Positions 3,551 to 23,600 of a DNA stretch of 64,000 nt are shown here, one piece after another. The notes beneath the pieces were generated by a model. That model ran no database searches, was not told where the DNA came from, and saw nothing but the letters and a program-made list of their open reading frames with translations. The translations under genes were made by a program, and so were the position numbers. Location: the NCBI GenBank assembly GCA_963797055.1, contig CAWCOD010000002.1, positions 491,598 through 555,597 on the forward strand, read 5' to 3'. The DNA comes from an uncultured Holophagae bacterium. Its GTDB lineage: Bacteria; Acidobacteriota; Thermoanaerobaculia; Thermoanaerobaculales; Sulfomarinibacteraceae. How positions within the stretch are numbered: the first letter of the stretch is position 1; each line of letters begins with the position of its first letter.

Positions 3551-3570
3551 GGGTTCCCACCCGTCCGCGA

Positions 3571-5088: not shown

Positions 5089-5089
5089 G

Positions 5090-5154: not shown

Positions 5155-5156
5155 AT

Positions 5157-5210: not shown

Positions 5211-5312
5211 CTATCCCGAGCCCGAGCCCGAGCCCGTTACCGGCTCCGTGCCCGGGCCGGATCAAAACGAAGAACAAAGAACAAAGATCCCCCACCCACC
5301 CGGATCTTGAAA

Positions 5313-5490: not shown

Positions 5491-5721
5491 GGCGGCGGTC
5501 AATTCGCAATTCGCAATTCGGATTGGTGTTGGCGGCCCGGGGGCCTGGTTGGTGCCAATTTGACAACTGCCGTTCCGAGCCCCACATTGATCTCAATAAC
5601 ATCTTCGAGATGAATGGGTAAATTTCAGAAGCGTTGATGGGTCTCGCGTCAGGGGTATGGCTGTGGGGTTGTTTCTGCGATTGATTCCTACAAACAAACG
5701 CGCGAGCGACATTGGAGAACG

Positions 5722-5835
5722 GCGCCTCCCTCGGAGGTGCCTGGCATCCCGATTCGCCGAGGTCGATGAGCGACCTGGCTCGTGGGGGCGAATCGGCGTG
5801 CCTGGCACCCTCACGGGAAGCGCGGCGGGAACATC
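5722..5835 (+). repeat. Dispersed repeat family B, copy 1
   Basis: GGAGGTGCCTGGCATCCCGATTCGCC, a variable loop, then GGCGAATCGGCGTGCCTGGCACCCTCACGGGAAGCG. Confidence 0.85.
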
Positions 5836-5951
5836 GGCGCGTCGAAAATGACACGTCCTGCCTGCTCCGTCGCGCCAGTTCTCCCTTCGCGCTCCCCGAG
5901 GTTACTCGCGGCCGGTGGCCGCGCCCACTGCCGCATCGGGTGGGTGGGCGG

Positions 5952-5984
5952 CAACTTTCAACTTTCGACTTTTCAACTTCCAAC
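5952..5984. repeat. 7-mer array (CAACTTT-like) after GGGTGGGTGGGCGG
   Basis: Box at 5938..5951. The array ends 15 nt before ATG 6000. Confidence 0.9.
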
Positions 5985-5999
5985 TCGAGAGGGGAGATC

Positions 6000-7667
6000 A
6001 TGAAAACGAAACACGTCGTGTTGTTGGCGGCGATTATTGTGTGCTGCTCAGGATTGGCGATGGCCCAGACCGAGTGGGTCGAATACCCGGACAACCCGGT
6101 CCTTGGGCCGGGTGATCCGGGGGCGTGGGACTCAGCTTACCGGGAGGTCCTCAACGTCGTGTCCGACGGCTCGATGTATCACCTGTACTTCTGGGGCACC
6201 GATGACGAGGACAACATCCCGGCCGCCATCGGCCATGCCACCTCATCAGACGGCGTGACGTGGACCATTGATCCCAACAACCCGGTATTGACCACGGGGG
6301 CCGAGGGGGAGTGGGACGAAGGCGGCATCGTTAATTTCGCAGTGATTTACGACAACGCCGAGTTCCACGTGTGGTACGCAGGGTGGATCGACGACTGGAA
6401 CTCTGGCGTCGGGTATGCCACCTCGCCCGACGGCAGCACGTGGACGAAGTACTCGGGGAACCCGGTCCTCGGCCACGGGTCTGCCGGGTCGTTCGATGAG
6501 AGCGGCGTTTTCCCTCGCAGCGTGATTTTCGACGGGGGAACCTACCGGATGTGGTACACGGGAGTGGACGTGCCCGATTTCTTCTTTACGATCGGTTACG
6601 CCGAATCCCCCGACGGGATCTCGTGGACAAAGCACCCGGGCCCGGTCCTCGGACCGGGATCGGGTTGGGACTCCTGGGACGTGTGGGGTCCGTCGGTCAT
6701 CTTTGACGGGTCGATCTACCACATGTGGTACACGGGATCCGAGCTTGTCGAGGGCTGGGTGTTCCCCGGGGGAATCGGCTACGCCGCCTCGGCGGACGGC
6801 ATCGAGTGGACGAAGTACCCGGACAATCCGGTGTTCGTTTTAGACGAGAGGCTAGTGAGTTATGGGAGTGTCGTGTTTGACGGCTCGGCCTACCGGATGT
6901 GGTATATGGATGGGGTCGTCGAGGGACCACCGGCGGAGATCGCGTACGCCACCTCCGACTGTTGCGCCCCCCCGATTTTCCGGCAGACCATCCCAGCGGC
7001 GGCGCTGGCATCGGGCGCTCAGGGATCCTTCTACCAGACCGATTTGGACCTCAACAACGCCGGTGACCAGCCGGTGGAGTACGAGTTCTGGTGGCTGCCC
7101 CGGGGCGAGACCAACACCGAGCCGACCAGGTCGGAGACCTTCAGCCTCGGTGCGGGCATGAGCGTGCGCTACGCCAATGTGCTGTCCGAGGTCTTCGGCC
7201 TTGAGCCCAACTCCTTCGGGGCGCTGTCGATTCTGTCGTCGAGCCCGGATCTGCTGGCCATGAGCCGGACCTACAACAACCCCGAGGGCGAGGACGCGGG
7301 CACCTTCGGCCAGGCCATTCCGGCGGTGCCACCGAGCGACTTCATCCAGACCGGCGAGCGACGGAGAATCCTCTTCGCCAGCGAGCACGAGGACCTGCGG
7401 TTCAACGTGGGCTGCCAGAGCGGCAGCGGCGAAGGGACCATGATCGTCAACCTCGAGCTCTTCGATGACGAGGGCACGTCGTTGGAGCAGACCATGATGA
7501 TCCTCAGGGCCTGGGGCAACGACCAGCTCAACCGGATCTTCCAGGACTACATGCCGGTGAACGGCTACGTCGATGTCTGGACCACCTTGCAGAACAAGAG
7601 CTTCTACTGCTACGGATCGGTGCTCGACAACGTGACCAGTGATCCGACGACGGTGCTGCCGCAGTGA
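6000..7667 (+). CDS. Secreted GH43/GH130-like beta-propeller protein with conserved C-terminal domain of unknown function (paralog 1)
   Basis: ORF 5712..7667. ATG 6000 follows RBS GAGAGGGGAG and gives signal peptide [23 protein letters not shown]. Five to six blade repeats (DG..YHMWY ... IGYA.S.DG..WTK...NPVL). The C-terminal ~230 aa ([24 protein letters not shown] ... [16 protein letters not shown]) is shared with 8048..9717 and 18796..20439. Confidence 0.85.
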
Positions 7668-7880
7668 GCCAGGGAGCAGGGCAGCGCTCCCATCGGAGGC
7701 GCGGCGGGCAGTCCCGAGCTCGACCGAGGCCGACCAACGACCTGTCATCGTCGGAGGAGCGAAATCGCGGCGTGCCTGGCACCCTCATGGGAAGCGCGGC
7801 GGGAACATCGGCGCGACGAAAATGACACGTCCTGCCTGCTCGCGTCGCTGCCCGTTCTCCCTTCGCGCTCTCCGAGGTTG

Positions 7881-7954
7881 CCAGGTACGCGCATTGTGCG
7901 GCCCCATCGACATCGCCCGGCCGTCGCCAGTTGTTCGCACAATGACGTACCTGG
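7881..7954. repeat. Hairpin element family E, copy 1
   Basis: CCAGGTACGCGCATTGTGCGGCC, about a 30-nt loop, then GTTCGCACAATGACGTACCTGG. It is inserted in the paralog-2 leader relative to the paralog-1 leader. Confidence 0.8.
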
Positions 7955-8000
7955 CACGCCCGATCATCGCGCCCACTGCCAGATCCAAGTGGGAGCGCGG

Positions 8001-8032
8001 CAACTTTCAACTGTCAACTTTCAACTTCCAAC
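8001..8032. repeat. 7-mer array (CAACTTT-like) in the paralog-2 leader
   Basis: CAACTTTCAACTGTCAACTTTCAACTTCCAAC; homologous to 5952..5984. Confidence 0.9.
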
Positions 8033-8047
8033 CCGAGAGGGGGAGTC

Positions 8048-9717
8048 ATGAACGCGACACGAGTGACGTTATTGGCGGTGATTCTGTGTGCTCATTGTCG
8101 CGGTGGCGTCGGCGCAGACCGAGTGGGTTGAAAATCCGGTCGATCCGGTGCTCGGGACGGGTGAGCCGGGGTCCTGGGACTACATCCGACTGCCGGCTGA
8201 GGTCGTCCTGGTTGACGGCACCTACCACCTCTTCTTCGGCGGTCAGCCGGAGGGTGACCGATCGCCTATTCGACGCTCTTCAGTTGGGGCACGCGACGTC
8301 GTCGGATGGTGTGACCTGGGAGATCGACCCGGCCAACCCGGTTCTGACTCTTGGAGGGGCGGGTGAATGGGACTCCGCGACCCTCCTGCCGGGAGCCATC
8401 GTCCACGATGGGAACGGATTTCACCTGTGGTACCACGGGAGCAACCCGACGGAGATACCTACCTCAGCGCGGTCGGTTATGCGACTTCGCCGGATGGCTC
8501 AAACTGGGTGAAACACGACGGCAACCCGATCATGGGCGAGGGACTGCCCGGGACCTACGACGACGGAGGTGTGCTGCCTCGCACGGTGATCGTCCGAGAC
8601 GGACTCTACCAGATGTGGTACACCGCGATTCATCGCTCGGACAACGAGTATGATTGGCGAATCGGCTACGCCGTCTCGGACGACGGTCTGGACTGGACCC
8701 GGCACCCTGTCCCGGTGCTGGAACCAGGTGTCGGGTGGGAGCAACTGATCGTCTTTGCTCCTCATGTGAGATTCGAGAGGTCGCAGTACCACATGTGGTA
8801 TAGCGGCTCCAATGGCGGGACCTTCAATATCGGATATGCTGTCTCGTCAGACGGCATCGAGTGGACCAGGTATTGGGACAACCCCGTCGTGTCCCGAGAC
8901 CCCTCGATTGCGGCCGAGCTCCCGTTGATTGTCCTCAACCCGGACACCCAGACATACGAGATGTGGTACCGAAACCTGGTCAATCTCAGCATCTACCGAG
9001 CCGTGTCGAACTGCTGTGCCACGGTGCATCTGTTGATCATTCCGGCCGCCGCAGTGGCCTCGGGCGCTCAAGGGTGCCTTCTACCAGACCGACGTGGACC
9101 TCAACAACGCCGGTGAGCAGCCGGTGGAGTACGAGTTTCTGTGGTTGCCCAGGGGCGAGACCAACACCGACCCGATGACCTCGGAGCCCTTCAGCCTCGG
9201 CGCTGGCATGAGCGTTCGGTACGCCAACGTGTTGTCCGAGGTCTTCGGTCTCGAGCCCAACGCCTTCGGTGCCGTCGGCATTCTTGTCCTCGAGCCCGGA
9301 TCTTCTGGCCATGAGCCGGACCTACAACATACCGAGGGTGACGGATCTGCCGGGACCTTCGGCCAGGCGATTCCGGCCATCCCACCGAGCGACTTCATCC
9401 AGACCGGAGAGCGGCGGCGGATCCTGTTCGCCAGCGAGAACGAGGATTTGCGGTTCAACGTGGGCTGTCAGAGCGGCGGTGACGGAACCATGGTGGTCAA
9501 CCTCGAGCTCTTCGACCACGAGGGCAGCTCGTTGGGGACAGAGATGATGATCCTCAGGGCCTGGGGCAACGACCAGATGAATCGGATCTTCCAGGACTAC
9601 ATGCCGGTGAACGGCTACGTGGACGTGTGGACCACAGACGCCGACAGAAGCTTCTACTGCTACGGCTCGGTGCTGGACAACGTGACCAGCGACCCGACGA
9701 CGATTTTGCCGCAGTGA
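8048..9717 (+). pseudogene. Frameshifted paralog 2 of the secreted beta-propeller / C-terminal-domain protein
   Basis: Homologous sequence is spread over ORFs 7639..8511, 8088..8366, 8367..9116 and 9094..9717. ATG 8048 follows the same leader and RBS as paralog 1. Frame changes near 8090, 8265, 8455 and 9080, plus a compensating pair near 9285 and 9335. Confidence 0.8.
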
Positions 9718-9737
9718 ACAAGGGAGCAGGGGGCAGG

Positions 9738-9925
9738 GCGCGTCCCTCGGAGGTGCCTGGCATCCCGATTCGCCGAGGTCGACAAGACCGATTCGTCCCG
9801 CTGGAGCGAATCGGCGTGCCTGGCATCCTCACGGGAAGCGCAGTCGGAGAATCGGCGCGTTGAAGTCGGTAGATCGAACCGAATGAGAGGAATTTGTGGT
9901 GCGGCCGTCTCGGCTGCAATCACAA
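9738..9925 (+). repeat. Dispersed repeat family B, copy 2 (long form)
   Basis: Same stem modules plus a 3' extension (GGAGAATCGGCGCGTTGAAGTCGG ... TTGTGGTGCGGCCGTCTCGGCTGCAAT). Confidence 0.9.
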
Positions 9926-9931
9926 CGGAAC

Positions 9932-9972
9932 CAAGATCGAAGAACAAAGATCGAAGATCCCCCACCCACCCA
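9932..9972. repeat. 7-mer array (GAAGATC/GAACAAA) plus CCCCCACCCACCC box
   Basis: Same array type as 5108..5140 and 5265..5303. Confidence 0.9.
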
Positions 9973-10005
9973 GGACCGACGAGAAGATTCGGGGTGGGCG
10001 GAGGA

Positions 10006-13000
10006 TCAGTTCTCGATCCGGACGGAAACCGCCTTGGACACCCCGGGCTCCTCCATGGTGATGCCGTAGAGCACATCGGCACGGGCCATGGTGCGCCGAT
10101 TGTGGGTGATCAGCACGAACTGGGTGTGGTCGGTCATGGCGGCGATCAGATCAGCTAGCCGCTCCACGTTGGCGTCGTCCAGCGGCGCGTCGACCTCGTC
10201 GAGGATGCAGAAGGGCGACGGCTTGATGCGGAATAGCGATATGAGCAGCGACAGCGCCGTCAGCGCCTTTTCTCCGCCGGACAGGAGTTGGACCGACTGG
10301 GTCTTTTTGCCGGGGGGCTGGGCGGTGATGTCGATGCCGGATTCCAGAGGATTGTCCTCGTCCACCAGTTGGAGGGTGGCGCTGCCACCGCCGAACAGGG
10401 TGTTGAAGGTCTCGTGGAAGACCGTGTTCACCTGCTCCAAAGTGGTGACGAAGCGCTCGGTGCAGTAGGCATCGATCTCGCGAATCGTGGCGTCGAGTTT
10501 ACGCAGCGCCTCGACAAGATCCTTGCGTTGAGTGGATAGGAACTCGGACCGTTGCGTGAGCTCGTCCACCTCCTGGAGGGCGAGCAGATTGACGGGTCCG
10601 ACCTTGTCGATCCTGAGCCGCAGGTCGTCGATTTTTTCTTGGAGCTGCTCCGGTTCGGCGCCGTCGTCGGGCTCGAGCTGGGCGAGGGCCTCCGGAGTGG
10701 TATCGAGATCCGCCGCCGCCGACTCCCTCAGGCGATTCCATTCGGCATCGAGGCGGGTGAGATCCATCTGGACCTCGTGCAACGACTCCCTCGCGCGATC
10801 GTGCTCCTCGCGGCGCTGTCGGACCTCCTTGTCGAACCGCTCCACCTGAGCCGCCACCTGGTCGATATTCTCACCAAGCCGCCGTTCCCGGTCGCGGGCC
10901 GATGCCAGCATGCCCTGTTCCTCGGCCAATCGGGTCCTCGACGTCACCACTTCCTGCTCGGTTCGGGTCAACTCGCCGGTGAGCCGTTCCACGTCGGCTT
11001 CGAGTTTGGCGATGCGCTCGTCCAGTCGTTGGCCTTCGCCCGCCAGCCGGTCGGTTTCGCTGCGGGCGGCCTCGGCTCGCTCTTCGGCCAGTCGTTCCTC
11101 GGCCCGCCAACGATCGAGTCGGCGCAGGGCCTCGGCGGTCTCATCGCGGTGCCCGTCGAGACTCGCCGTGGCGTCATCCACCGCCTGTTCGAGCTCGGCC
11201 GTTCGAGTTTCGAAAGCACTGACCTCCGACTGGAGAATCTCGCGCCGTTTGGATAGTTCGGCCTGCTGCGTCCTGCTGCGTTCGCTCTCGGCGGCCACCG
11301 ACTCGAACTCGTTCTTGAGTCGCGACACATCCTGGCCGAGGGATTGCTCGACGGCGGTGGCGCGGCCCCGATCCTGCTCGGCCTGGAGGAGAAGGTTGTC
11401 CAGCTCACCGAGTTCGCTGTTTACCTCCACGAGCTGTGATGCTAGCGAACGGTGGAGGGCGGATGCCGTGTTCTCCCGACCTTCCATGGCCGCGATTTCG
11501 GCCGCGAGGTGCTGGCGGTCATCGCGCAGGGCGAGCGCACCGTGGACGCGGGCTCCGGCGGTGGGTGGTTCCTGGGTGAGGCCTCGCCAGATGACACCAT
11601 CCGGCCCGACAAAGATTGCCTGCGGGTGCTGTTCTGCGAGGGATCGCGCGTTCGTCGGACTGGAGCAGATGAATGCCGGGGGAAGGATCCGCGTGATCCA
11701 GAGCAGATCCTCGGCCGTGATTCCGGCGTGGTCGAACAGGGACTCGGCGCCTTCTGGTGTCTTGAGGATCGGGGGAGAGGGCGCGTTCGACGTGACGGCC
11801 AGTCGGAGTCGCCCGTCGAGATCGGCCACCGCTTTCAGCTGCTTCGTGGACAGGCCCTCACACCGGATCACCGGAAGCTCGAGCCAGTCGGACCACACCC
11901 GGTCGAGCAACCCGGTCTGGTCCTTTCTGGGGCTCAGGTAGTCGCTCAGTTGTCCGTCGAGCATGTCCGAGGGAAGGCACTCGGTGAGCTGCTCGGACAG
12001 TGCGGAGTGGCGGGCCAGCTCACGTTCGACGCCAGCCAGGCGGTGGCGCAAATTCCACAGTTCCTGCCCCAGACTCTCGGCCTCGTTCCTGGAGGTCCTG
12101 GCCTCCTCTTGCAGACCCGTTCGGCGTTCCACGAGACCTCGCCGCCGCAGTTCGAGTTCCTCCACGGCCGCGGTGGCGTGCTGGCTGTCCTCGGCCGCAG
12201 CCCGGTATCTGGCGTCGGATTCGGCGAGGCGGCCGTCCAGCGTGGTGCTCTCGTGTTCCAGTTGCTCGAGGGAGTAGCTCAAACGATCCTGTTCACGCTC
12301 GAGCTCGCCAAGCAGATTGCGATTTGAAGTGAGCGACGAGATGGCCCGGAGCAGTTCCTGGCGCCGCTGAGTTGCCTGATTCTCGGTCTCCTGGAGCAGA
12401 CCGCGGGCCGTGGCCTCGGCTTCGGTCGCTTCCTCCACCGTCTTCCGGATGGTGGCCAGCGCCTCTTCCAGGGTCGATTGCCGTTCGGCAGCGTCGTCGA
12501 TGCGTTCGGAGAGCTCAGCCCGGTTCGAACTCAGCGTGGTGCCGTCGACTCGGGCCCTGGCGACCGACTCTCTGAGGTTGTCGATCAGATCGGCCGACCG
12601 CTCCAGGAACGCCTCCATGCGTTCTCGGGAGGTCATGAGGTCGGCGACCTCGGTGCGGGCTCCCTCCACCTCGGTGCGGGTGGTCTCGAGGTTGGCCCGG
12701 GCCTGGGTCAGATCCGCCTCGGAGCTGCCGAGGCTGGCGGCGGCAGCCACCACCTCGTTTTCGATCTGGGCTCGATGACGCGAACCCTCCCGACGGGATG
12801 TGTCGAGCTCGCGAGACGACAGGATCAGCAGAGTGCGGATGGTGTCCTTGAGCTCGTCCTGGAGGCGCTGGTGGCGCCTTGCCTGGCCGGCCTGCCGTTT
12901 CATCTGACGCAGCGACCGGTCCACCTCCGAGATCACATCGTCGAGCCTGATGAGGTTCTGGCGTGTGTGCTCGAGCTTGAGTTCGGCATCGTGCTTGCGC

Positions 13001-13524
13001 CTCTTGTAGCGTGTGATTCCGGCTGCTTCTTCGATCAGCGCTCGGCGGTCGGTGGGACGAGCCGACAGCACTTGACCCACTCGTCCCTGCTCGATGATCG
13101 AGTAGTCGCGGGTGCCCAGCCCAACGGACAGGAGCTCGTCCCGGACGTCCGCCAACCGGGCCGTTCTGCCGTTGAGACGGTACTCCGATGGGCCGGATTT
13201 GTAGACACGGCGCCGTATCTCGAGCTCGCCGTCGGTCTCCTTCCAGTGGCCGTCGTCGGAATTGAGGGTGAGAACCACCTCGGCCGCTCCGGCGGGAGAC
13301 CGGCGCGTCGCGCCGGAAAAAACCACCTCGCCCATCTGTTTGAGGCGGAGAATGGTCGGGCTCTGTTCGCCGAGCACCCACAGGATGGCGTCCACCAGAT
13401 TGGACTTGCCGCAGCCGTTGGGTCCGATGATGGCCGACACGTCGCTGGGGAAGGCAAGGTCCACCTGATCCGGAAACGACTTGAATCCGGACAATCTGAG
13501 CGATTTGAGACGTACACGTGCCAT
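10006..13524 (-). CDS. smc: Chromosome segregation protein SMC
   Basis: 1172-aa ORF. N-terminal Walker A GPNGCGKSN, long coiled coils, C-terminal signature LSGGEKALTALSLL and Walker B FCILDEVDAPLD. Confidence 0.97.
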   Translation of the reverse strand: MARVRLKSLRLSGFKSFPDQVDLAFPSDVSAIIGPNGCGKSNLVDAILWVLGEQSPTILRLKQMGEVVFSGATRRSPAGAAEVVLTLNSDDGHWKETDGELEIRRRVYKSGPSEYRLNGRTARLADVRDELLSVGLGTRDYSIIEQGRVGQVLSARPTDRRALIEEAAGITRYKRRKHDAELKLEHTRQNLIRLDDVISEVDRSLRQMKRQAGQARRHQRLQDELKDTIRTLLILSSRELDTSRREGSRHRAQIENEVVAAAASLGSSEADLTQARANLETTRTEVEGARTEVADLMTSRERMEAFLERSADLIDNLRESVARARVDGTTLSSNRAELSERIDDAAERQSTLEEALATIRKTVEEATEAEATARGLLQETENQATQRRQELLRAISSLTSNRNLLGELEREQDRLSYSLEQLEHESTTLDGRLAESDARYRAAAEDSQHATAAVEELELRRRGLVERRTGLQEEARTSRNEAESLGQELWNLRHRLAGVERELARHSALSEQLTECLPSDMLDGQLSDYLSPRKDQTGLLDRVWSDWLELPVIRCEGLSTKQLKAVADLDGRLRLAVTSNAPSPPILKTPEGAESLFDHAGITAEDLLWITRILPPAFICSSPTNARSLAEQHPQAIFVGPDGVIWRGLTQEPPTAGARVHGALALRDDRQHLAAEIAAMEGRENTASALHRSLASQLVEVNSELGELDNLLLQAEQDRGRATAVEQSLGQDVSRLKNEFESVAAESERSRTQQAELSKRREILQSEVSAFETRTAELEQAVDDATASLDGHRDETAEALRRLDRWRAEERLAEERAEAARSETDRLAGEGQRLDERIAKLEADVERLTGELTRTEQEVVTSRTRLAEEQGMLASARDRERRLGENIDQVAAQVERFDKEVRQRREEHDRARESLHEVQMDLTRLDAEWNRLRESAAADLDTTPEALAQLEPDDGAEPEQLQEKIDDLRLRIDKVGPVNLLALQEVDELTQRSEFLSTQRKDLVEALRKLDATIREIDAYCTERFVTTLEQVNTVFHETFNTLFGGGSATLQLVDEDNPLESGIDITAQPPGKKTQSVQLLSGGEKALTALSLLISLFRIKPSPFCILDEVDAPLDDANVERLADLIAAMTDHTQFVLITHNRRTMARADVLYGITMEEPGVSKAVSVRIEN

Positions 13525-13655
13525 CCGTGCGACAAGGTATCAAAGCGAGACCTCGGTTGAAAGGCCAAAGTCCGGCGAATGTGACCGCGACCGCACGAAA
13601 CGGCGGATATGCACCCCGTGCGTGCTGAACTGGGGTAAAAAGTCGAAGGTCGAAC

Positions 13656-13706
13656 GTTAGCCCGCACTTCTCACCGAGTGTCTGCTGCGGGCGGCGATCG
13701 CGAATC
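13656..13706 (+). repeat. Dispersed repeat family C, copy 1
   Basis: CCCGCACTTCTCACCGAGTGTCTGCTGCGGGCGGCGATCGCG is the reverse complement of 45400..45441. Confidence 0.8.
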
Positions 13707-13844
13707 GTGCTCCTCAACGTAGTGCGACTACGCCTGCGTCGCCCGATCCGCTAAAAACCACATCTGACCACCCTCGCCGCCCCGTGACGAAACCCGGTGT
13801 GAAGTGCGGGTTAGAATGTTCCCCGCCCACCCGGAACGAAAAAG

Positions 13845-13990
13845 CGCAACAGGCGGGCGTGCCGTCCTCACGCGCGCCGCGAGCGCGCGGGCCGGTGCCA
13901 GGCACCGTCGAAATCGCATCGGAGCATGAGATCGATACATCTGCGGCGGTGCCTGGCACCGACATGGCGATCGGAATATGAGGTGGGCTC
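13845..13990 (+). repeat. Dispersed repeat family A, copy 3
   Basis: Arms at 13894..13906 and 13948..13960; same spacer with a few substitutions. Confidence 0.85.
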
Positions 13991-14082
13991 ACTCGGGGAG
14001 CGCCAGGGGGAGATGGGCGCGATGAAGTTCGGTCATCGATCTCATAGCGTTCGTCGCGCCCTGGCCGTCAGTGCGCTCCCCG

Positions 14083-14185
14083 TCGAGGATGCCAGGCACG
14101 CCGATTCGCCTGAAGTTCACGGGCACATCGACGCACGATGGCGAATCGGGATGCCAGGCACCTCCGAGGAACGCGCCCTCTTCCG
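14083..14185 (-). repeat. Dispersed repeat family B, copy 3 (inverted, short)
   Basis: Reverse complement of the core stems, with a different loop. Confidence 0.8.
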
Positions 14186-14258
14186 TTCCGGATGGGCAGG
14201 GGATAACGTTTCAACGTTGAACGTCTGCACCCTCCACTCTTTCCGCACCGTCCCCACC

Positions 14259-14284
14259 GGGCGGGCGGGCGGGCGGGTGGGTGG
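14259..14284 (+). other. Canonical G-quadruplex-forming tract in the PNP leader
   Basis: GGGCGGGCGGGCGGGCGGGTGGGTGG: six G3 tracts with 1-nt loops on the sense strand, ending about 22 nt before ATG 14307. Confidence 0.6.
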
Positions 14285-14306
14285 CGTCCTATGCTACATT
14301 TCGGCC

Positions 14307-15143
14307 ATGGGCACAGTCTTCGATCCCGATTCGCTGACGCAGATCGCCGCACTGTTCGGCGAGCGCTATCGTACGGGTACAGTCCGGGCGCTCATGGTGG
14401 CCGGTTCCGGACTCACCCTCGATGTCCCAGGCTGGGAGGCAACCGAGGAAGTCGAACTCGCGGATGTCTTCCCCTTCGAGATGCACGAACTCCTTGGTCA
14501 CCGTCAGACGGTCACCCTGTGGCGGCGGGGCTCGGAGACCATCCTCGCACTCAACGGGCGTTTCCACCTCTACCAGGGGTACACCCCGGAGCAGGTTGTG
14601 GCCCCGGTCAGACTCGCCGGATTGCTGGGCGCGGAGGTGATGATCGCCACCAACGCCACGGGCGCCCTCGATCCCGAGCTTCGGGCAGGGTCGCTGGTTG
14701 TGGTATCGGACCACATCAACCTGCAGGGGGCCAACCCGCTGGTGGGTGAGTGGGGGCTCGGATTTGGGCCGCAGTTTCCGGACATGAGTGAGTCCTATGA
14801 TCCCGAACTTCGTCGGCTGGCTGTCGCTGCGGCTGCGGAAAGCGGCTTCGAGGTTCGTGAGGGCGTGTACGCAGCCGTGCTCGGACCGTCCTTCGAGACA
14901 CCGGCCGAGGTCCGTATGCTCGGCCTCTTGGGTGGGACAGTGGTTGGCATGTCCACCGTGCCGGAGGTGATCGCCGCGAGGCAGATGGGGCTCAGGGTCT
15001 TGGTCATCTCACTGGCCACGAATCCGGGGGCGGGGCTGGTGGATAGGCCGTTGACCCACCTCGAGGTCATCGAAGCCGGTGAGGCTGCCAGGGAGAATCT
15101 CAAACACCTGCTCGGCCTCCTCGTTCAGAGAATCTTCGATTGA
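14307..15143 (+). CDS. Purine nucleoside phosphorylase (PNP/MTAP family)
   Basis: ORF 13926..15143. The 5' part is repeat sequence, and ATG 14307 gives MGTVFDPDSL. Motifs GRFHLYQGY, FPDMSESYD, GPSFETPAE and VGMSTVPEV. Confidence 0.9.
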   Translation: MGTVFDPDSLTQIAALFGERYRTGTVRALMVAGSGLTLDVPGWEATEEVELADVFPFEMHELLGHRQTVTLWRRGSETILALNGRFHLYQGYTPEQVVAPVRLAGLLGAEVMIATNATGALDPELRAGSLVVVSDHINLQGANPLVGEWGLGFGPQFPDMSESYDPELRRLAVAAAAESGFEVREGVYAAVLGPSFETPAEVRMLGLLGGTVVGMSTVPEVIAARQMGLRVLVISLATNPGAGLVDRPLTHLEVIEAGEAARENLKHLLGLLVQRIFD

Positions 15144-15246
15144 CGACGGGTTTTGCGTCGCGAGGGTCGAGTATCGAGTCGACCTCTTCTAAGCGAATCG
15201 GTCGAGTGGGGGAATGCACAACTCGTGATGTGTTATTAGGAGTAGG

Positions 15247-15900
15247 GTGGAGGTAGGGGTGTTTTTAGACGTTTTCCCAACCGGTCCGATTCAGGCCAAC
15301 TGCGTATTGATTGGTGACGAGAAGGCCGGGGTTCTGGCTGTCATCGACCCGGGCGAGGAGGCCGATCGGATCTGTGACCGCATCGCGGCCAGCGGGCTCG
15401 ACCCGGTCGTCGTACTCCACACCCACGGCCATGTGGATCATGCCGGCGGCACCGCCGAGTTGATGCGCCGACTGGGGGACGGAGTTCCCGTTGGCCTTCA
15501 TCCCGAGGAACTCGACCTGTACCGCGGGCTCGCCATGCAAGGGCGTCTCTTCGGTGTCGAGACTGAAACGCCGCCGCAGCCTACCAAGTGGTTGAAACAC
15601 GGCGACAGAATACCGGTGGGCGGGCTCGAGCTGGAGGTGCGGCACACCCCAGGTCACTCACCAGGTGGAGTGTCATTCGTGGTCCACGGGAACTCGCAAC
15701 CTATCGTGGTGGTGGGGGATCTGCTTTTCGCCGGGTCCATTGGCCGTACGGACCTGTTCGGCGGGTCGTATCACATTCTCGAGCGGTCAATCAGAGAGCA
15801 GATTTACGTGTTGCCGGACGACACCAGAGTGATCAGCGGTCACGGACCGGACACCACCGTCGGCCGCGAGAAGGCCGCAAATCCTTTTGTCAGGGGCTGA
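15247..15900 (+). CDS. MBL-fold metallo-hydrolase (glyoxalase II-like)
   Basis: 217-aa ORF with HTHGHVDHAGG (HxHxDH), then HTPGHSPGG and GDLLFAGSIGRTD. Confidence 0.9.
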   Translation: MEVGVFLDVFPTGPIQANCVLIGDEKAGVLAVIDPGEEADRICDRIAASGLDPVVVLHTHGHVDHAGGTAELMRRLGDGVPVGLHPEELDLYRGLAMQGRLFGVETETPPQPTKWLKHGDRIPVGGLELEVRHTPGHSPGGVSFVVHGNSQPIVVVGDLLFAGSIGRTDLFGGSYHILERSIREQIYVLPDDTRVISGHGPDTTVGREKAANPFVRG

Positions 15901-15903
15901 TCG

Positions 15904-15936
15904 GTCAAAAAACAGAGGAGTTTGCAGTTTTTTGAC
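15904..15936. terminator. AT-rich perfect hairpin after the MBL hydrolase gene (weak terminator candidate)
   Basis: GTCAAAAAAC, a 13-nt loop, then GTTTTTTGAC: a perfect 10-bp inverted repeat 4 nt after the stop at 15900. It lacks a GC-rich stem. Confidence 0.3.
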
Positions 15937-16067
15937 GGTCGTCACATTGCATCACGGTCGCAGTCTGGCAGAATGGCTGCGACCGCAGCGGCGAACCGCC
16001 GAATCGGCGAACTATCCACAGGACATTCCATTGACCGGGTGGTGCTCGGACGAAGGGAATCCGTCAA

Positions 16068-18134
16068 ATGTCAGTCAATAAAACATTTCGCATGGCAATT
16101 GCCGCAATTATGATCGTCGGCGGATTTTCCGGTGGGGACCTCCTCGCAGCGTCCCCGGCCGAGCGAATCTGGTCCCAGGCGCCGGCTTCATCCCTCGATC
16201 CCACAGCTGACAGGGCGATCATCCCGTTGAGATTTCAACCGGTCATCCTGGACCGTGCCGCCTTGGATGCCGAGTTGCGTCGAGCGCCAAACGAGATGGC
16301 TGAGAATGCCCAGGCCCTTGCCGTGGTGGTGCCTCTGCCCACCCCCGATGGTGGAATCGCGTACTTCAGGGTGGTGTCGTCGCCGATCATGGAGCCCGAG
16401 TTGGCCGCCCGGTATCCCCAGATTCAGACCTTCCGCGGCCAGGGGATCGACGATCCCAGCGCCACGGTGAGGATGGACCGCACCCTTCACGGATTCCACG
16501 CCATGGTGATGTCCTCCTCCGGGAGCTATTTTGTAGACCCCTACGCCAGGGGAGATGTGGACACCCACATCGTCTACTCCAGGTCCGATCTGGTGAATCC
16601 CCACGCAGGGGTCTTCAGCTGCGGCGTACCCTCTGACCAGGAGGGTGGCGGTGGCGAGGGAACCACTGAGGGCATGGAACTCTCAGGCGCATCGCTGAGG
16701 AGCTACCGGCTTGCCGTGGCGGCCACCGGGGAGTACACCGCCTTCCATGGTGGGACCGTTCCGGACGGCATGGCGGCCATCGTGACCGCGATCAACCGGG
16801 TCAACCAGATCTACGAGCGCGAAGTGGCGATTCGCATGATGTTGGTGGCCAACAATGACCTCGTGGTCTATACCAACGGTGCGAGCGATCCCTACTCCAA
16901 CTCCAACGGATACGCCATGCTCGGCCAGAATCAGAGCAATCTGGACGCCGTCATCGGCTCCGCCAACTACGACATGGGCCACGTCTTCTCCACCGGTGGT
17001 GGTGGCATCGCAAATCTTCGCGCGGTCTGCAACAACAGCTACAAGGCGCAGGGAGTCACCGGATTGCCGAGCCCCGTCGGCGATCCCTTCTACGTGGATT
17101 ATGTAGCCCACGAGATGGGCCACCAGTGGGGCGCCAACCACACCTTCAATGGTAATGAAGGCGGCGTGTGGTGGCGGCAACCGCAACCCGTCCACGGCCT
17201 ACGAGCCGGGCAGCGGATCAACCATCATGGCCTATGCCGGCCTCTGCGGCATCCCACAACACCCAGTACTTCAGCGACGACTATTTCCACGGAGCCAGTT
17301 TCTCGGAAATCGTCTCCTACAGTACGCGCGGGCGTCGGCAACAGCTGCGCTGCGGAGACAGCCACCGGCAACTCGCCGCCGCTCGTTGAGGCGGGTGACG
17401 CATTCACCATCCCGGTGTCGACCCCATTCGCGCTCTGCGGTTCGGCGGTGGACCCAGATGCCGATGTCCTGACCTACGGCTGGGAGGAGTTTGATCTCGG
17501 GCCCGCGGGTCATCCCAACACGCCGAGCGGAAACGCGCCGATCTTCAGGAGCTTCGACCCGGTGAACTCGCCAGAGCGGCTCTTTCCGAAGGCGTCCGAC
17601 ATCGTCAACAACGTGCAGACAAAGGGTGAAATCCTGCCGAGCTATGCCCGGAACCTGAACTTCCGATTGACCGCGCGGGACAACTTGTCGGGTGGCGGTG
17701 GGGTCGACTTCGACACCACCAGTCTCGCGGTCTCCGATGCCGGCGGCCCGTTCGTGGTGACCTCGCCGGACAGCGCCGTGACCTGGACCGGCGGCACCAC
17801 CCAAGTCGTGAGTTGGGACGTGGCCGGCACCGACCTGGCGCCCATCAGCTGTGACAGCGTGGATATCGCCCTGTCGCTGGACGGCGGCTGGAACTTCCCG
17901 CTGGTCCTGCTCAGCGACACTCCGAATGACGGCTCTCAGGCGGTGATGATGCCCGACCTCCAATCCGCCACGAGTCGCGTCCGGGTGAGCTGCCACGGCA
18001 ATGTCTTCTTCGATATCTCCAATACCAACTTCACGTTGACCGGCTCGGGCGCCATGTTTTTTCCGAGGGCACCGATGGCTGCGGCGGCGGCTGGGGGGCG
18101 TGGACCTCGGTCGTTCAGTAGGGCAAGGCAGTAG
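16068..18134 (+). CDS. Secreted reprolysin-like (M12B-type) zinc metalloprotease with an internally frame-scrambled segment
   Basis: Signal-like N-terminus [19 protein letters not shown]. Zinc motif [13 protein letters not shown]. Between about 17160 and 17335 the family-like sequence moves through the other two frames ([28 protein letters not shown] in ORF 17149; [21 protein letters not shown] in ORF 17168) and then returns. A further possible shift lies at the T6 run near 18055. Confidence 0.8.
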
Positions 18135-18196
18135 GCAGGAGCCCCCGCCCACAAGGGGCGGGGCCGCGACGGGCGGGCGTGCCACTTCTGACACCT

Positions 18197-18247
18197 TTAA
18201 GTTGAAAGTTGAACGTTAAACGTTGAACGTTCCCACCCTCCCTCCCG
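18197..18247. repeat. 7-mer array (GTTGAAC/GTTAAAC) plus CCCACCCTCCCTCCCGG
   Basis: TTAAGTTGAAAGTTGAACGTTAAACGTTGAACGTT followed by the C-tract box. Confidence 0.85.
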
Positions 18248-18251
18248 GATC

Positions 18252-18425
18252 GTGAGAGGGGGCAACCTGCCGGCGGCAGCGATTGTGGCCTGGGCCGGGA
18301 GGGATGTGGCGGGAGTTGATCCGGCCACTGGCCACTCGCTGGTGACGGCTGGTCACCGCGGCCGGCTTGTCACGGCGAAGCCCGAAGGGCGGAGCCGGAA
18401 GGCCGCGAGTAACCTCGGGGAGCGC
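18252..18425 (+). repeat. Dispersed repeat family F, copy 1
   Basis: GGGGGCAACCTGCCGGCGGCAGCGATTGTGGCC ... CTGGTGACGGCTGGTCACCGCGGCC ... GGCCGCGAGTAACCTCGGGGAGCGC. Confidence 0.8.
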
Positions 18426-18435
18426 GGTTGGGAGA

Positions 18436-18640
18436 AGGCGCGTCCCTCGGAGGTGCCTGGCATCCCGATTCGCCAACGTCGACAAACCGACTCGTCCCGT
18501 TGGAGCGAATCGGCGTGCCTGGCATCCTCACGGGAAGCGTGGCTGGAGAATCGGCGCGTTGAAATCGGCACCTGAAACCGAACGAGAGGGGCATTGTGGC
18601 GGAGCCGTCCCGGCTGGGATTCTGGCCGCGATTGAGCGCG
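18436..18640 (+). repeat. Dispersed repeat family B, copy 4
   Basis: About 107 nt identical to 24744..24850. Confidence 0.9.
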
Positions 18641-18795
18641 CGATGAGATTCCGCTGATGCTGTCATCCTGAGCGAGCGAAGCGACGGAGGATGTGAGTTG
18701 GAGGATCGATCCGCAGGAAAACCGCAGCCTAACCTCAGGCAACTCGGCTTCCGGGGCGCCACCTTTTAGACGAGAGAGTCCAAAAGGAGGAAGTC

Positions 18796-20439
18796 ATGGG
18801 TGGAAGACGAGTTGTGGTGGTGTTGGCGATTGGGGTGTGCTGTGCGGGAATCGCAATGGGGCAAACGGACTGGGTCGACAACCCGGACAATCCGGTCATC
18901 GAGTCGGGTGAGTCCGGATCGTGGAATGCAGGCGGGAACTGGGGCACGGCCGCCTTCTTTGACGGATCGACCTACCACATGTGGTTCACCGGGGAGGACC
19001 AAAACGGGTATTGGTCCGGCGTCGGCCACGCCACCTCACCCGATGGCGTCGAATGGACCATGGATCCGGCCAACCCCGTAGTTTCCGCCGGCGAATCCGG
19101 GGAGTGGGACGACTCCTACGTTATTTCGGGGGCGGTGATCCACGACGGGACCCAGTTCCACATGTGGTACTCGGGCTCCGGCGGTGCCGAGGAATCGCTC
19201 GGCTACGCCACTTCGCCCGACGGCAGTATGTGGACCAAACACGACGGCAATCCTGTCATGGATGCTGGGGCGTCCGGCACGTGGGACGACTTATGGGTCG
19301 GGCCCTCCTCGGTCATTGCAGACGGCGAGAACCTCCAGATGTGGTATTGGGGCTCCAACGGGTCTGTCGGGAGTATCGGGTATGCCGAATCGCCGGACGG
19401 GATCGATTGGACCAAGCGCCAGGAGCCGGTCCTCGAACCGCAGGAAATCCCCGGGGGGGCCTGGGACGCGCAGACTCTCTACGGCCCGCTCGTCATTTTC
19501 AACCCACTCAACCCACCCATGTACCAGATGTGGTACGGAGGGCACGATTCGGACAACCCCCTTGTCGGCTATGCCTTCTCGAGCGACGGCATCGAGTGGA
19601 CGCGACACCGTGACAATCCGGTCATCGAAGCCGGCCATCCCGTTGTTCTCTTTGACGGGTCCGACTATCACATGTGGTACGCCTACAAAGATGGTGGCTG
19701 GCAAATGTCCTACGCCACCTCTGACTGCTGCCCCGGTGTGGCTGGTCTGACGCACATGCAGACCATCCCGGCTGCGGCGGTGGCCTCGGGCGCCGAGGGG
19801 GCCTTCTACCAGACCGACGTAGACCTCAACAACCCCGGTGAGCAGCCGACGGAGTACAAGTTCATGTGGCTTCCCCGCGGTGAAACCAACTCCGACCCCA
19901 TGGCGTCGGAGTCCTTCAGTCTCGGCGCCGGCATGAGCGTGCGCTATGCCAATGTGCTGTCCGAGGTCTTCGGGCTCGAGCCCAACTCCCTCGGGGCGTT
20001 GTCCATTCTGTCATCGAGCCCCGATCTGCTGGCCATGAGCAGGACCTACAACAGTCCCGAGGGCGAGGAGGCGGGCACCTTTGGCCAGGCCATTCCAGCG
20101 GTTGCGCCCGTTGATTTCATTACAACCGATGAGAGGCGGAGGATTCTCTTCGCCAGCGAAAACGATGATCTGCGTTTCAACGTGGGCTGCCAAAACGGCG
20201 GAGATCTCAGCATGGTGGTCAACCTCGAGCTCTTCGACTCCGAGGGCTCGTCGTTGGAAAGCACAATCATGCTCCTTAGGGCTTGGAGCAACGATCAGTT
20301 CAACCGTGTGTTTGGTGATTACCAGCCGGTCAACGGCTATGTCGATGTGTGGACCACAAACGCTGGCAAGAGCTTCTATTGCTACGGATCGGTGCTGGAC
20401 AACGTGACCAGCGACCCGACGACGATTTTGCCGCAATGA
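18796..20439 (+). CDS. Secreted GH43/GH130-like beta-propeller protein with conserved C-terminal domain (paralog 3)
   Basis: 547-aa ORF after RBS AAAGGAGGAAG. Signal peptide MGGRRVVVVLAIGVCCAGIAMGQ. Same blade motif (STYHMWFTG, VGHATSPDGVEWT). The C-terminal domain is nearly identical in parts to paralog 1 ([39 protein letters not shown]). Confidence 0.9.
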   Translation: MGGRRVVVVLAIGVCCAGIAMGQTDWVDNPDNPVIESGESGSWNAGGNWGTAAFFDGSTYHMWFTGEDQNGYWSGVGHATSPDGVEWTMDPANPVVSAGESGEWDDSYVISGAVIHDGTQFHMWYSGSGGAEESLGYATSPDGSMWTKHDGNPVMDAGASGTWDDLWVGPSSVIADGENLQMWYWGSNGSVGSIGYAESPDGIDWTKRQEPVLEPQEIPGGAWDAQTLYGPLVIFNPLNPPMYQMWYGGHDSDNPLVGYAFSSDGIEWTRHRDNPVIEAGHPVVLFDGSDYHMWYAYKDGGWQMSYATSDCCPGVAGLTHMQTIPAAAVASGAEGAFYQTDVDLNNPGEQPTEYKFMWLPRGETNSDPMASESFSLGAGMSVRYANVLSEVFGLEPNSLGALSILSSSPDLLAMSRTYNSPEGEEAGTFGQAIPAVAPVDFITTDERRRILFASENDDLRFNVGCQNGGDLSMVVNLELFDSEGSSLESTIMLLRAWSNDQFNRVFGDYQPVNGYVDVWTTNAGKSFYCYGSVLDNVTSDPTTILPQ

Positions 20440-20610
20440 TAGCGAGCGAGCAGGGAGCAGGAGGCAGGGAACAGCGCTCACAAACCCGGTGAGATATGCG
20501 GGCTAGAGGGCCGACCCCGGGAGATAAACCCTCGGGCCGAATCGAGCCTTCGGAAAGCGGCCGTGACGGCGGCACTCTAACGCCGCGCCTGGTAGGTGGC
20601 TGGAGGTCCC

Positions 20611-23600
20611 ATGGCCAGCGTGATCCAATTCCGCACACGACGTTCGCAGGTCGGCGTGGCAACAACGCGCCGGGTTGTGGGTCGTGCGGCGACGCCATAC
20701 AATGATCCCAGAGTGTCCGTTCAACTTGCGACGATCATCCAGAACGGTGAGCCGTTTCTCATCGGAGAATGGCTTTTGGAGCCGATGCTCAACCGGCTGA
20801 CGCGGGGCGAGACCACGGTCCAGCTCGAGCTCAAGGCCATGGACGTGCTGCTTTGCCTCGCCGAGCATGCCGGGGAGGTGATGGGCAAGCACGATCTCCT
20901 CGATGAGGTGTGGCAGACCGAGTTCGTCTCCGACAACACCCTGCAGCGGAGGATCGCTGAGCTGAGAGAGGCTTTCGGCGACAACGCCTCAAGGCCCTGC
21001 TACATCGAGACCATTCGCAAGCGCGGCTACCGCCTGATTGCCGAGGTGGTTGCGGTGACCACGGCCGGCGAGATCGCGATGGCGATCCCCGAGACACCCG
21101 TCCCTCCTGACGAGGAGCGCAACCCGTACCCGGGTCTGGCTGCCTTCACCGAGATCGACGCCGACCGATTCTTCGGCCGGACCATCGAGGTCGCGGCTCT
21201 GTGGCGCAAAATCACCTCTCGGCGCCTGCTGGCCGTGATCGGTCCTTCGGGCATCGGCAAGAGCTCACTGCTGCGCGCCGGAGTCGCCTCCCGAGCCCCG
21301 CCCGGCTGGCGGGTGGTGGTCTTCACCCCGGGCGAAGTGCCGGTGCTGTCGCTGGCACGGGCTTTAGCTCCCGACCACTCCGGCGATCCGGACGCTGTGG
21401 CGCGACTGGTGGGTTTCACCGATCCGGACACCGCTTTGGCCGTAATCTCCAGGTGGCGGGGGAACTTCCAGCAAGCGGTTCTCGTGGTCGACCAGTTCGA
21501 GGAGCTATTCACTCTCAGCACGCCCGAAGTGCAGACGGGCTTCATCGAACTGCTGCGACGGCTGGTGGACGCTGCCGACGTGCACGTTGTGCTGGTTATG
21601 CGGGACGACTTCGTCTATCAATGCCAGCCGTTCTCGCAGATCACACCGATTTTCAAAGACCTGACACCGCTGGGCCCACCCAGCGGCGAGGCTTTGCGGC
21701 GGGCCCTCAGGGAGCCGGCGGCGCGGCAGCTCTACCGGTTCGAAAGCGAACGCCTGGTGGACAGAATGGTCGCAGAAGTCGAGGACGAGCGGGGTGCCCT
21801 GCCCATGCTCGCCTTTGCCGTGCATCGACTGTGGGAGGAGCGGGATTGCGAGCAGCGGGTCCTCACGGAGGAGGCGTACAACCGCATCGGCGGTGTGTCC
21901 GGCGCCCTGGCCCTTCATGCCGAATCGACCCTTGACCGGATCGGCGCGGAGCGGTTGCCCATCGTACGCGAGGTCTTCCGCAATCTGGTCACCGCAGAGG
22001 GTACCCGGGCGGTCCGCGTGGTGGGCGAACTTCTGTCCGTCTTCGATGTGGGTGACCGTGAATCCGCCGCCGAGACCCTGGGTGAACTCATCGACGCCCG
22101 TCTCTTGACCTCCTTTGAGGGGGAAACGGATGAGATTGTTGACGTTCGGCAGAGCAACCGGGTCGAGATCATCCACGAATCGCTGTTGCGTGCATGGCCG
22201 AGACTGGTGCGCTGGCAAACCCGGGACGCAGACGCCGCGCAGCTCCGGGACCAACTTCGCCAGGCGGCGCGTGTATGGCACGAACACGGACGCCACGAAG
22301 ACAGGTTGTGGATCGGAACCGCGTTTCGAGAGTTCCAGCTGTGGAGGGAGAGCTACCCGGGTGGTTTGACCGAGACCGAAGAAGGCTTTTCCGAAGCGAT
22401 GAAATTACACGCGAACCGCCGCAGACGCAGACGCCGACTCGCGGCCACGGCGTCATTCGCCATTCTACTGGTTGTTCTCGCTGTCGTCGGCCTGTCCCGT
22501 CAGCGGGCGGTCACCGAGGCCAGACGTGCGGAAGCGGCCAAGCTGTTGGCGATTGGCCAGAGCGAGATCGACATCTATCCGACCGCCGCCCTGGCGTGGG
22601 CCATGGCCAGTCTCGGGCTGGCTGACACCCAGGAGGGGCGATTGCTGGCGATGCGCGCCATACAAAAAGGTCCTCCGGTATCGGTGTGTCCTCGAGATTC
22701 AATTCGGTTGTTGGGTATCGTAGATCTCGCCATCAGCCCGAACGGCACGTGGATCGTCGGCAGCGGAGATCGCCTGGAACTCAGACGCCGTGACGGCAGT
22801 GAGCCGATCCTTGTGTCCCACCCAGAAGAGGCGATGGAGTCTGGCCGGACGTACGATGAGGTTCTGGCGGGATTCATTTCCGACGCGGTCTTGCTTACCG
22901 AAAAACGAGGGGAACACTACTGGTGGGCGATACCTCAGGTGGAGCGACCCATGCAGCTCCGTCGCGATAGGGGATCACTTGGCGAGGTACAGAGCGACGG
23001 GTACTTCAGTTTCTCGAAAGCCGGTGATCAGGTCTCAATCCATCGGTGGCCTTCGGACGGGGGCCCCGGGCGATTGGTGGGGTCCATGGATCCATGGGGT
23101 CCAAGTGATATTGACGACACAGGGTCAATGATGGCGTACGCCAGAGAAAATCTCCTTTTCGTGCGGTCACTGGAAGATTGGGACCGTCCGCCGCTGCGGA
23201 TCGGGGAGCACGAACACTCCGTGCAGTTCGTGGCTTTTCATCCTGACGGAGACAACCTGGCTGTCGCGGACAATTCAGGCGCGGTGAGGCTTTGGTCCAT
23301 ATCCAGCGGCCCGCCACAGCTGTTGCGCTCGATCACTCTCGGTGGTGTCCCTCACGGAACACTCGTTTACAGCCCCACGGGAAGGTGGCTCGCCGGGGCA
23401 GACAACGAAAACGGAACACAGCTGTTCGACCTGGCGGCACCCAATGGATCAGCCCCTCTGATGTTGAGAAGGTCGGACGAATCGGCGGTGGTGTCTCTCG
23501 ACTTTCACCCCGATGAGAACTGGTTGGTCACCGCGAATTTCAACAGTTTTGGGTTCTGGCCTTTAACTCACAGATTCGCCACGGTTCTGGACCAAGCCGG

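Follow-up and report, generated by a model that had tools for sequence, protein, structure and literature searches.

The window analysed here is a stretch of 64,000 nucleotides (nt) from an uncultured Holophagae bacterium (contig CAWCOD010000002.1, positions 491,598 to 555,597 of the forward strand). It contains three paralogous genes, g1, g2 and g3, each encoding a predicted signal peptide, a propeller resembling those of glycoside hydrolases (GH), a junction with two adjacent cysteines and a C-terminal domain (CTD), which is the main subject of this analysis. The same architecture had been proposed in a preliminary description of the sequence, together with its typical motifs, namely SDCC or SNCC at the junction, (T/I)IPAAA at the start of the CTD and (V/I)LPQ at its end. 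All three genes lie on the plus strand at the expected places, as judged by open reading frames (ORFs), translations and Pfam and structure matches, and all the motifs are present in the translations. The features of the three genes are the following:

6000..7667, plus strand: g1, intact gene of 555 amino acids (aa), from the ORF list and translation
6000-6065, plus strand: predicted signal peptide of g1, aa 1-22, read from the sequence
6066-6965, plus strand: predicted GH130-like five-bladed propeller of g1, aa 23-322, with SDCC at its end and a short linker before the CTD
6987..7664, plus strand: CTD of g1, aa 330-555 (226 aa), all-beta in the AlphaFold2 (AF2) model
6987-7298, plus strand: half A of the g1 CTD, aa 330-433, predicted beta-sandwich repeat
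7299-7664, plus strand: half B of the g1 CTD, aa 434-555, predicted beta-sandwich repeat homologous to half A
7626-7664, plus strand: CTD residues 214-226 in g1, the conserved terminus
8048..9717, plus strand: g2, paralogue with six single-base frameshifts, from three-frame translation and a blastx frame map
about 9039..9714, plus strand: CTD of g2, from DNA alignment
18796..20439, plus strand: g3, intact gene of 547 aa, with predicted signal peptide (aa 1-22), propeller, SDCC junction and CTD (aa 323-547)
19762..20436, plus strand: CTD of g3, found by tblastn

When the CTD of g1 was used as a tblastn query, exactly two further copies were found in the window, with protein identities of 81% (g3, E 1e-123) and 79% (g2, E 6e-113). 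The propellers of the three paralogues are only about 40-60% identical as proteins, far below the CTDs.

No Pfam or NCBIfam family matched the CTD (6987-7664) at E<=1, and comparison with PDB sequences, including close (A1) and broad (A3) profile searches, returned nothing meaningful. No Pfam or NCBIfam model was found over the domain in eight distant full-length family members either, and literature searches for a Thermoanaerobaculia C-terminal domain, for DUF5719 and for sorting domains of Acidobacteriota gave nothing relevant. The initial statement that the domain could be assigned to no named family thus holds, and no well-characterised family emerged.

The AF2 model of the CTD, built from a 49-sequence alignment, is all-beta, with about 17 strands (pLDDT 92.3, pTM 0.86), and is divided into two sandwich-like halves, corresponding to CTD residues 1-97 and 109-223. 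The two halves were compared by hhalign: a significant match was obtained with the broad alignment (probability 84.5%, E 7e-6, 84 columns), and not with the close-family alignment (E 0.37). The motif W.TDL.v.NpG...SRTYN of the first half is paired with fRTNiG..N...SViDN of the second. Because of the significant match between half profiles, the CTD can be described as an Ig-like repeat of ~110 aa that was duplicated in tandem long ago. The best structures retrieved by Foldseek, all of them weak matches, are tandem beta-sandwich proteins with binding or scaffold roles (RbmA, XepA, tandem CBM22 and SGBP-B, as well as the sandwich domains of GH2 enzymes). As regards carbohydrate-binding modules (CBMs), no Pfam model matched the CTD of the window, one remote member reached CBM_6 at E 0.009, below the cut-off, and the similarity to the tandem CBM22 fold is weak (E 2e-3, TM 0.24-0.27). 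A cluster of polar residues (N24, T95, Q109, R138, N140, Q180, D214 and D219) is invariant down to about 30% identity, and a pair of cysteines, C143 and C208, is conserved in the close subfamily.

A separate observation concerns the Asp-Pro pair D219-P220, located six residues before the C-terminus, which is invariant family-wide down to about 30% identity (alignments A1 and A3). Asp-Pro bonds are cleavage sites in some self-processing modules.

The family is very large. An indexed search returned 194 close homologues of the CTD, while in an exhaustive search the number of cluster representatives was 3,587 with a threshold of E<=1e-3, falling to 1,812 with E<=1e-10 and to 333 with E<=1e-30; clusters being defined at 50% identity, 3,587 is a lower bound on the size of the family. 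In species-representative genomes, 267 stretches were confirmed, and the 78 best of them were examined as loci. Almost all of the 78 come from metagenome-assembled genomes (MAGs) of Holophagae, Thermoanaerobaculia/Thermoanaerobaculales, 'Sulfomarinibacteraceae' and unclassified Acidobacteriota, and single MAGs carry at least 8-9 CTD loci among the top 80 alone. In close relatives only 0-2 residues follow the CTD, which is present once or twice in tandem. The wider family typically has two tandem copies, which may also directly follow the signal peptide or be internal, in proteins that reach 2,874 aa; within a pair, the upstream copy keeps the full terminal motif despite its internal position.

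In order to describe what the domain is fused to in other genomes, 70 N-terminal regions from the 78 loci were scanned against Pfam, and unrelated exported domains were found. GH130/GH32N-like propellers (22 of the 70 regions) and LVIVD propellers (19) are the most frequent partners, followed by PA (11), PKD (4) and FGE-sulfatase (2) domains; PHB-depolymerase, GDSL and alpha/beta-hydrolase esterases, FG-GAP, SBBP and Kelch also occur, and distant members add CARDB, LRR, Calx-beta, fn3, LamG and DUF4397. Stand-alone copies of the CTD exist as well. All partners are of extracellular module types, and typical signal peptides are present. Apart from CTD genes themselves, no recurrent neighbour gene, such as a sortase or a transporter, was found within +/-4 kb in the 78 loci. 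An ArsR-like ORF lies near the CTD gene in 7 of them, and one remote member, P0307, is found in a housekeeping-gene context.

The translations of g1 and g3 show the features of a type I Sec signal peptide (basic N-terminus, hydrophobic core, AxA-type site). Cleavage is predicted between AMA and QT in g1 and between AMG and QT in g3, whose signal peptide, MGGRRVVVVLAIGVCCAGIAMG, is followed by QT; in the AF2 model of g1 a helix spans residues 3-16, within the signal peptide. The predicted mature proteins start with QTxW, and Q23, T24 and W26 are invariant across 69 homologues.

The propeller shows partial similarity to known glycoside hydrolases. The GH130 Pfam model (PF04041, cut-off 26 bits) scores 34.8 bits on g1, over 53 residues only, and 16.8 bits, below the cut-off, on g3; the GH32N model (PF00251) matches g1 partially, with 35.3 bits. 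Pfam matches to the propeller span just 50-100 residues, and the scores of NCBIfam models for GH130 mannoside phosphorylases/mannosidases are far below their equivalog cut-offs (67 vs 450 bits and 26 vs 550 bits). Weak matches to GH117, GH130 and GH43 structures were also seen with PDB sequences. The AF2 model of full-length g1 (pLDDT 87.6, pTM 0.80) was compared with known structures by Foldseek, and the best matches of the propeller are GH130 enzymes, with template modelling (TM) scores of 0.62-0.74, normalised to the target, and a root mean square deviation (rmsd) of 4-6 A. The signature motifs of GH32 are WMNDPNG, RDP and EC; none of them was found on direct reading of the g1 and g3 translations. 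The strongest conserved motif, present once per blade, is the Asp-box-like G(Y/H)A(T/E)SxDGxxWT, followed by NPV. This blade motif accounts for direct DNA repeats of 50-97 nt, spaced ~180 nt apart, within the three genes (6223-6837, 8279-8892 and 19016-19627). As far as the evidence goes, the N-terminal domain is at most a GH130-like five-bladed propeller and a putative enzyme; its homologues carry the JGI label 'predicted GH43/DUF377 family glycosyl hydrolase'.

What follows the propeller was analyzed in a set of 2,642 homologues of the g1 propeller, selected at E<=1e-5. Those ending in a CTD are about 550 aa long, while others, of about 410-510 aa, end in a sorting domain of the type IX secretion system (T9SS), namely Por_Secre_tail, CHU_C or FlgD_ig; DUF11 and a MopE-type Cys-rich motif are further endings. 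A short form, of about 335-341 aa, keeps the junction as ATS(D/T)CC and then closes with a conserved tail of ~22 aa, (L/V)F.DGFE.GDTS.WS..VP. Short-tailed propellers with signal peptides were found in the MAG CAWDGW, which also has CTD-bearing paralogues. Since both forms occur in the same MAG and the short one has a signal peptide, the CTD is dispensable for Sec export of this propeller.

The short conserved tail, which recurs at the C-terminus in place of the CTD, was observed in the propeller-only paralogues P0431, P0344, P0347, P0356 and P0372.

The possibility that the SDCC junction is part of the CTD was considered and rejected: propeller-only paralogues keep the junction, and a cysteine within 28 residues of the CTD start is present in only 45 of the 70 partner regions (alignment A2). 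The motifs are partner-specific, being ATS(D/E)CC after GH130-like propellers and F(R/S)(E/D)C(G/A)G after LVIVD propellers, and partners of the PA, PKD and esterase types have no junction cysteine.

Carbohydrate binding, anchoring and secretion, the roles initially suggested for the CTD, are all still live, and the evidence leans to binding or retention. The best explanation, put forward tentatively from sequence and structural models, is that the CTD is a non-catalytic binding or retention module. The proteins would first be exported by Sec, and the propeller, or another partner, would then do the chemistry. The CTD, an autonomous extracellular module made of two homologous ~110-aa beta-sandwich repeats, would bind a polymer, either an envelope or matrix glycan or the substrate itself, and so retain the enzyme on the cell surface or the substrate, with greater avidity where the module is paired in tandem. 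Within the locus, recurrent conversion between linked paralogues, in addition to purifying selection, keeps the three tails alike while the propellers diverge independently. This explanation is favoured over a signal, or over an integral part of an enzyme, because of promiscuous fusion, tandem duplication, internal copies which keep the terminal motif, the N-terminal or internal placement of the domain in remote members, the predicted Ig-like repeat fold, the cysteine pair and the invariant polar cluster. Binding is also preferred to a signal because propeller-only paralogues in CAWDGW still carry predicted signal peptides.

Several observations weigh against a binding or retention role. The structural matches of the CTD are weak, the best Foldseek E being about 1e-4 and TM not exceeding 0.27. 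On homologous propellers elsewhere, the slot of the CTD is taken by a T9SS sorting domain. The terminus of the close subfamily, DNxTSDPTT(I/V)LPQ-COOH, is strongly conserved and almost always ends the protein, as would be expected of a sorting tag. Finally, the homogenisation of CTDs within genomes, described below, might result from co-evolution with a partner particular to each genome, and not from neutral conversion.

The last three points are shared by the alternative that survives best, by which the CTD would be a lineage-specific signal for secretion or surface attachment, analogous to the CTD of T9SS substrates and read, perhaps also processed, by an acidobacterial machinery. The position at the extreme C-terminus in most close members, with its near-invariant terminal motif, the variety of unrelated exported cargoes and the number of loci per MAG all fit such a signal, as does homogenisation within genomes if one genome-specific receptor had to be served; Por_Secre_tail or CHU_C in the same position on homologous propellers provides the precedent. 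Nevertheless, at 226 aa and two sandwiches the CTD is two to three times as large as known sorting domains, tandem duplication is common and leaves a 'terminal' motif inside the protein, remote members bear the domain N-terminally or internally, no neighbour gene is conserved within +/-4 kb in the 78 loci, and propeller paralogues with signal peptides and no CTD exist in the same MAG. On balance a signal of this kind is unlikely. In its more specific version, the CTD would label the cargo of an as yet undiscovered pathway for secretion or surface attachment in Holophagae and Thermoanaerobaculia, as a counterpart of the T9SS CTD fitting a genome-specific receptor or envelope glycan. That fit would explain why conversion homogenises the CTDs of each genome while cargo domains are free to change, but this version is a more doubtful proposition still.

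A second alternative regards the CTD not as an independent module but as structurally integral to the catalytic domain, like the C-terminal beta-sandwich of GH32 and GH43 enzymes; it would shape the active site or affect stability or oligomerisation. The top Foldseek matches of the full-length model are indeed GH32 enzymes, made of a propeller and a C-terminal beta-sandwich, over about 600 columns, and the full-length pTM of 0.80 hints at a defined domain arrangement; these alignments, however, have an rmsd of about 19 A, and the CTD alone retrieves no GH32 or GH43 C-terminal domain. The same CTD also follows LVIVD, PA, PKD, esterase and FGE-sulfatase domains, or stands alone, propellers without it exist, and CTDs have been swapped between propellers only about 50% identical. 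This alternative is accordingly judged improbable.

Independently of its role, the CTD evolves differently from the propeller. In windows of 60 nt, DNA identity among the three genes is 0.3-0.75 in the propeller and 0.7-0.97 from the CC junction to the stop codon, or about 50-60% for the propellers and 80-95% for the CTDs as a whole. Conservation is therefore uneven, as had been noticed at first sight, with a leap at the CC junction, and not uniform along the genes. The 'long nucleotide identities' then described stand in part: CTD DNA is near-identical in places, but exact shared runs are modest, the longest being 47 nt (g2/g3), 38 nt (g1/g2) and 26 nt (g1/g3).

Substitution rates were estimated by the Nei-Gojobori method. 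Between g1 and g3, synonymous divergence (dS) is 1.11 and nonsynonymous divergence (dN) 0.44 in the propeller, compared with 0.63 and 0.13 in the CTD. Among the three copies, dS of the CTD ranges between 0.53 and 0.80, vs about 1.1 in the propeller, and in some windows of 30 codons the proportion of synonymous differences (pS) falls to 0.23. The dN/dS ratio of the CTD, 0.15-0.21, indicates purifying selection. Informative sites within the CTD form a mosaic, in which g1 agrees with g3 at about nt 177-341, g1 with g2 at about nt 341-600, and g2 with g3 in the last ~80 nt; in a maximum-chi-square permutation test, the p-value of this clustering is about 0.003.

The two parts of g1 also have different nearest relatives. 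Its propeller is closest to orthologues from other MAGs, L006 (75%) and L005_2083 (72%), and shares only about 50% identity with those of g2 and g3, while its CTD is closest to those of g2 (85%) and g3 (81%). A similar comparison was made among the homologues themselves, where L005a stands for L005_2083 and L005b for L005_4001:

L006 and L005a, orthologues from different genomes: propeller DNA 93% identical, CTD DNA 75%
L006 and L004, paralogues separated by 13 kb within one genome: propeller DNA 64% identical, CTD DNA 86%
L005a and L005b, adjacent paralogues in one genome: propeller DNA 64% identical, CTD DNA 77%

In three genomes, CTDs thus cluster by genome and propellers by ortholog. The pair L037/L019, which retains orthologous CTDs, is an exception, and not all paralogues take part. 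Purifying selection alone is insufficient, since the CTDs of orthologues are more divergent than those of paralogues; conversion between linked paralogues, restricted to the domain, can explain this. Repeated domain-restricted gene conversion and purifying selection together keep the CTDs alike, while the propellers diverge independently, so that of the two causes first suggested, gene conversion or strong constraint, both operate. An explanation without conversion, either purifying selection after an old whole-gene duplication or an assembly or polishing artefact between repeats, would be compatible with the low dN/dS, with the short identical tracts and with the indel problems of g2 and of a neighbouring metalloprotease gene described below, but is very improbable and essentially excluded, as the CTD has the lower synonymous divergence too, the nearest relative shifts along the CTD, orthologues with nearly identical propellers have less similar CTDs than paralogues of the same genome, three MAGs sampled separately all show this pattern, and a repeat collapse would give near-100% identity, against an overall 75-86%.

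The g2 gene was initially described as decayed. It is indeed frame-broken, being readable only with six frame switches, at about 8085, 8265, 8450, 9075, 9270 and 9330. All lesions, however, are single-base indels (+1, +1 and -1 within the CTD, by DNA alignment), two of them enclose 20 codons where the DNA still codes for a stretch of 14 residues in the original frame, and the dN/dS of the frame-corrected CTD, 0.15-0.17, is the same as in intact copies. The neighbouring metalloprotease gene (16068..18134) has three frame changes near 17100-17400, its last segment beginning with GNSCAAE, and CTD-bearing genes are split or truncated by frame changes in related MFD long-read MAGs (L012, L016, L018, L028, L061 and L071). 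In view of the intact-like dN/dS, the frameshifted metalloprotease and the fragmented homologues in long-read MAGs, an assembly error is plausible, and indel errors in the consensus are at least as likely for g2 as a very recent decay. Taken together, the frameshifts of g2 and of the metalloprotease gene suggest local consensus indel errors or clustered pseudogenisation, and the fragmented genes of the related MAGs suggest systematic assembly errors in GC-rich genomes or a frequent decay of the family.

The three paralogues are flanked by dispersed intergenic repeats. An exact 26-mer, GGAGGTGCCTGGCATCCCGATTCGCC, is found in 7 copies in the 64 kb, where 0 are expected, and longer copies, of about 100-170 nt and 70-97% identical, belong to the repeat families D10, D11 and D15:

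5733, 9749, 14140(-), 18449, 24759, 35513(-), 56287, strands as marked: exact matches to the 26-mer
5704-5872 (+; upstream of g1), 7768-7841, 9720-9890, 18420-18589, 3831-3970, 5309-5448, 13838-13977: longer repeat copies

The repeat looks like a repetitive extragenic palindromic (REP) element or a miniature inverted-repeat transposable element (MITE) and may possibly serve as a recombination substrate.

Two larger ORFs recognised by domain scan complete the picture of the locus:

16068..18134, strand not stated: reprolysin-like M12B metalloprotease ORF
20596..24684, strand not stated: ORF with Trans_reg_C, nSTAND1 and WD40 domains

They correspond to the secreted metalloprotease and to the membrane regulator with winged helix-turn-helix, NTPase and WD40 domains pointed out in the preliminary description. 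The second ORF, directly downstream of g3, encodes a protein of 1,362 aa, in which an OmpR-type winged helix and an nSTAND1 NTPase are accompanied by WD40 repeats and a predicted transmembrane segment; no functional link between it and the three paralogues was found. The other neighbours in the window are housekeeping or unrelated genes (CrtC-like lipocalin, SMC, purine-nucleoside-phosphorylase-like protein, MBL hydrolase), no sign of an operon around the paralogues was seen among the window neighbours, and Rfam gave no match in 3000..21000.

A large part of the proteins predicted to be exported by sediment Acidobacteriota (Holophagae, Thermoanaerobaculia and 'Sulfomarinibacteraceae'), groups which are abundant, uncultured and implicated in polymer degradation, carries the CTD. 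Definition of the domain would improve the annotation of proteins now mostly labelled 'hypothetical', or half-labelled 'GH43/DUF377', and would provide a handle on how these diderm bacteria retain or target extracellular enzymes. Its concerted evolution, confined to this domain, offers a clear natural instance of conversion acting on one module of multidomain paralogues, and hints at a shared, genome-specific interaction partner. The importance would be much greater if it were true that the CTD tags an unknown acidobacterial sorting pathway.

The three proteins can finally be compared with known systems. The five-bladed propellers of GH130, GH43, GH32 and GH117 resemble the N-terminal domain only, in fold and through weak sequence matches; they differ in that scores are far below the equivalog cut-offs, Pfam cover is partial and the Asp-box-like blade motif is the strongest feature.

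DUF5719 (PF18986), itself uncharacterised and represented by a model of 319 positions, is the sole Pfam family that recurs among relatives of the CTD. At E<=1 it matches 8 of 35 diverse members, with a best E of 1.8e-5, and in the separately scanned P0273 and P0282 it scores 24.7-26.2 bits, the remote P0282 reaching the gathering cut-off of 26.2 bits; the CTDs of the window gave no DUF5719 match at all. Membership of the CTD in DUF5719 was rejected: the matches are partial and fall on differing halves in differing proteins, which suggests a generic similarity among Ig-like repeats.

RbmA of V. cholerae, the tandem CBM22 of Xyn10C and SGBP-B of Bacteroides are the best, though weak, fold matches of the CTD. 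These proteins are extracellular and non-catalytic, multivalent through tandem repeats, and attached to or found beside glycan-active enzymes. They share no sequence similarity with the CTD, and the Foldseek E is only about 1e-4 to 1e-2 with TM <=0.27.

The CTDs of T9SS substrates (Por_Secre_tail, PF18962; CHU_C, PF13585) are likewise C-terminal beta-sandwiches, carried by many unrelated exported proteins, lineage-restricted, present in many copies per genome and found in the same slot after GH130-like propellers. They are single sandwiches of 70-100 aa, while the CTD described here, at 226 aa, consists of two and frequently occurs in duplicate; moreover, its hosts are Acidobacteriota MAGs, and remote members carry it N-terminally or internally. 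Neither PF18962 nor PF13585 matched g1, g3 or the CTD in Pfam scans, although, as a control, these models do match the propeller homologues P0324, P0326, P0330 and P0381. The CTD is a real, large and unnamed domain family, of a familiar type, the accessory beta-sandwich module of secreted proteins.

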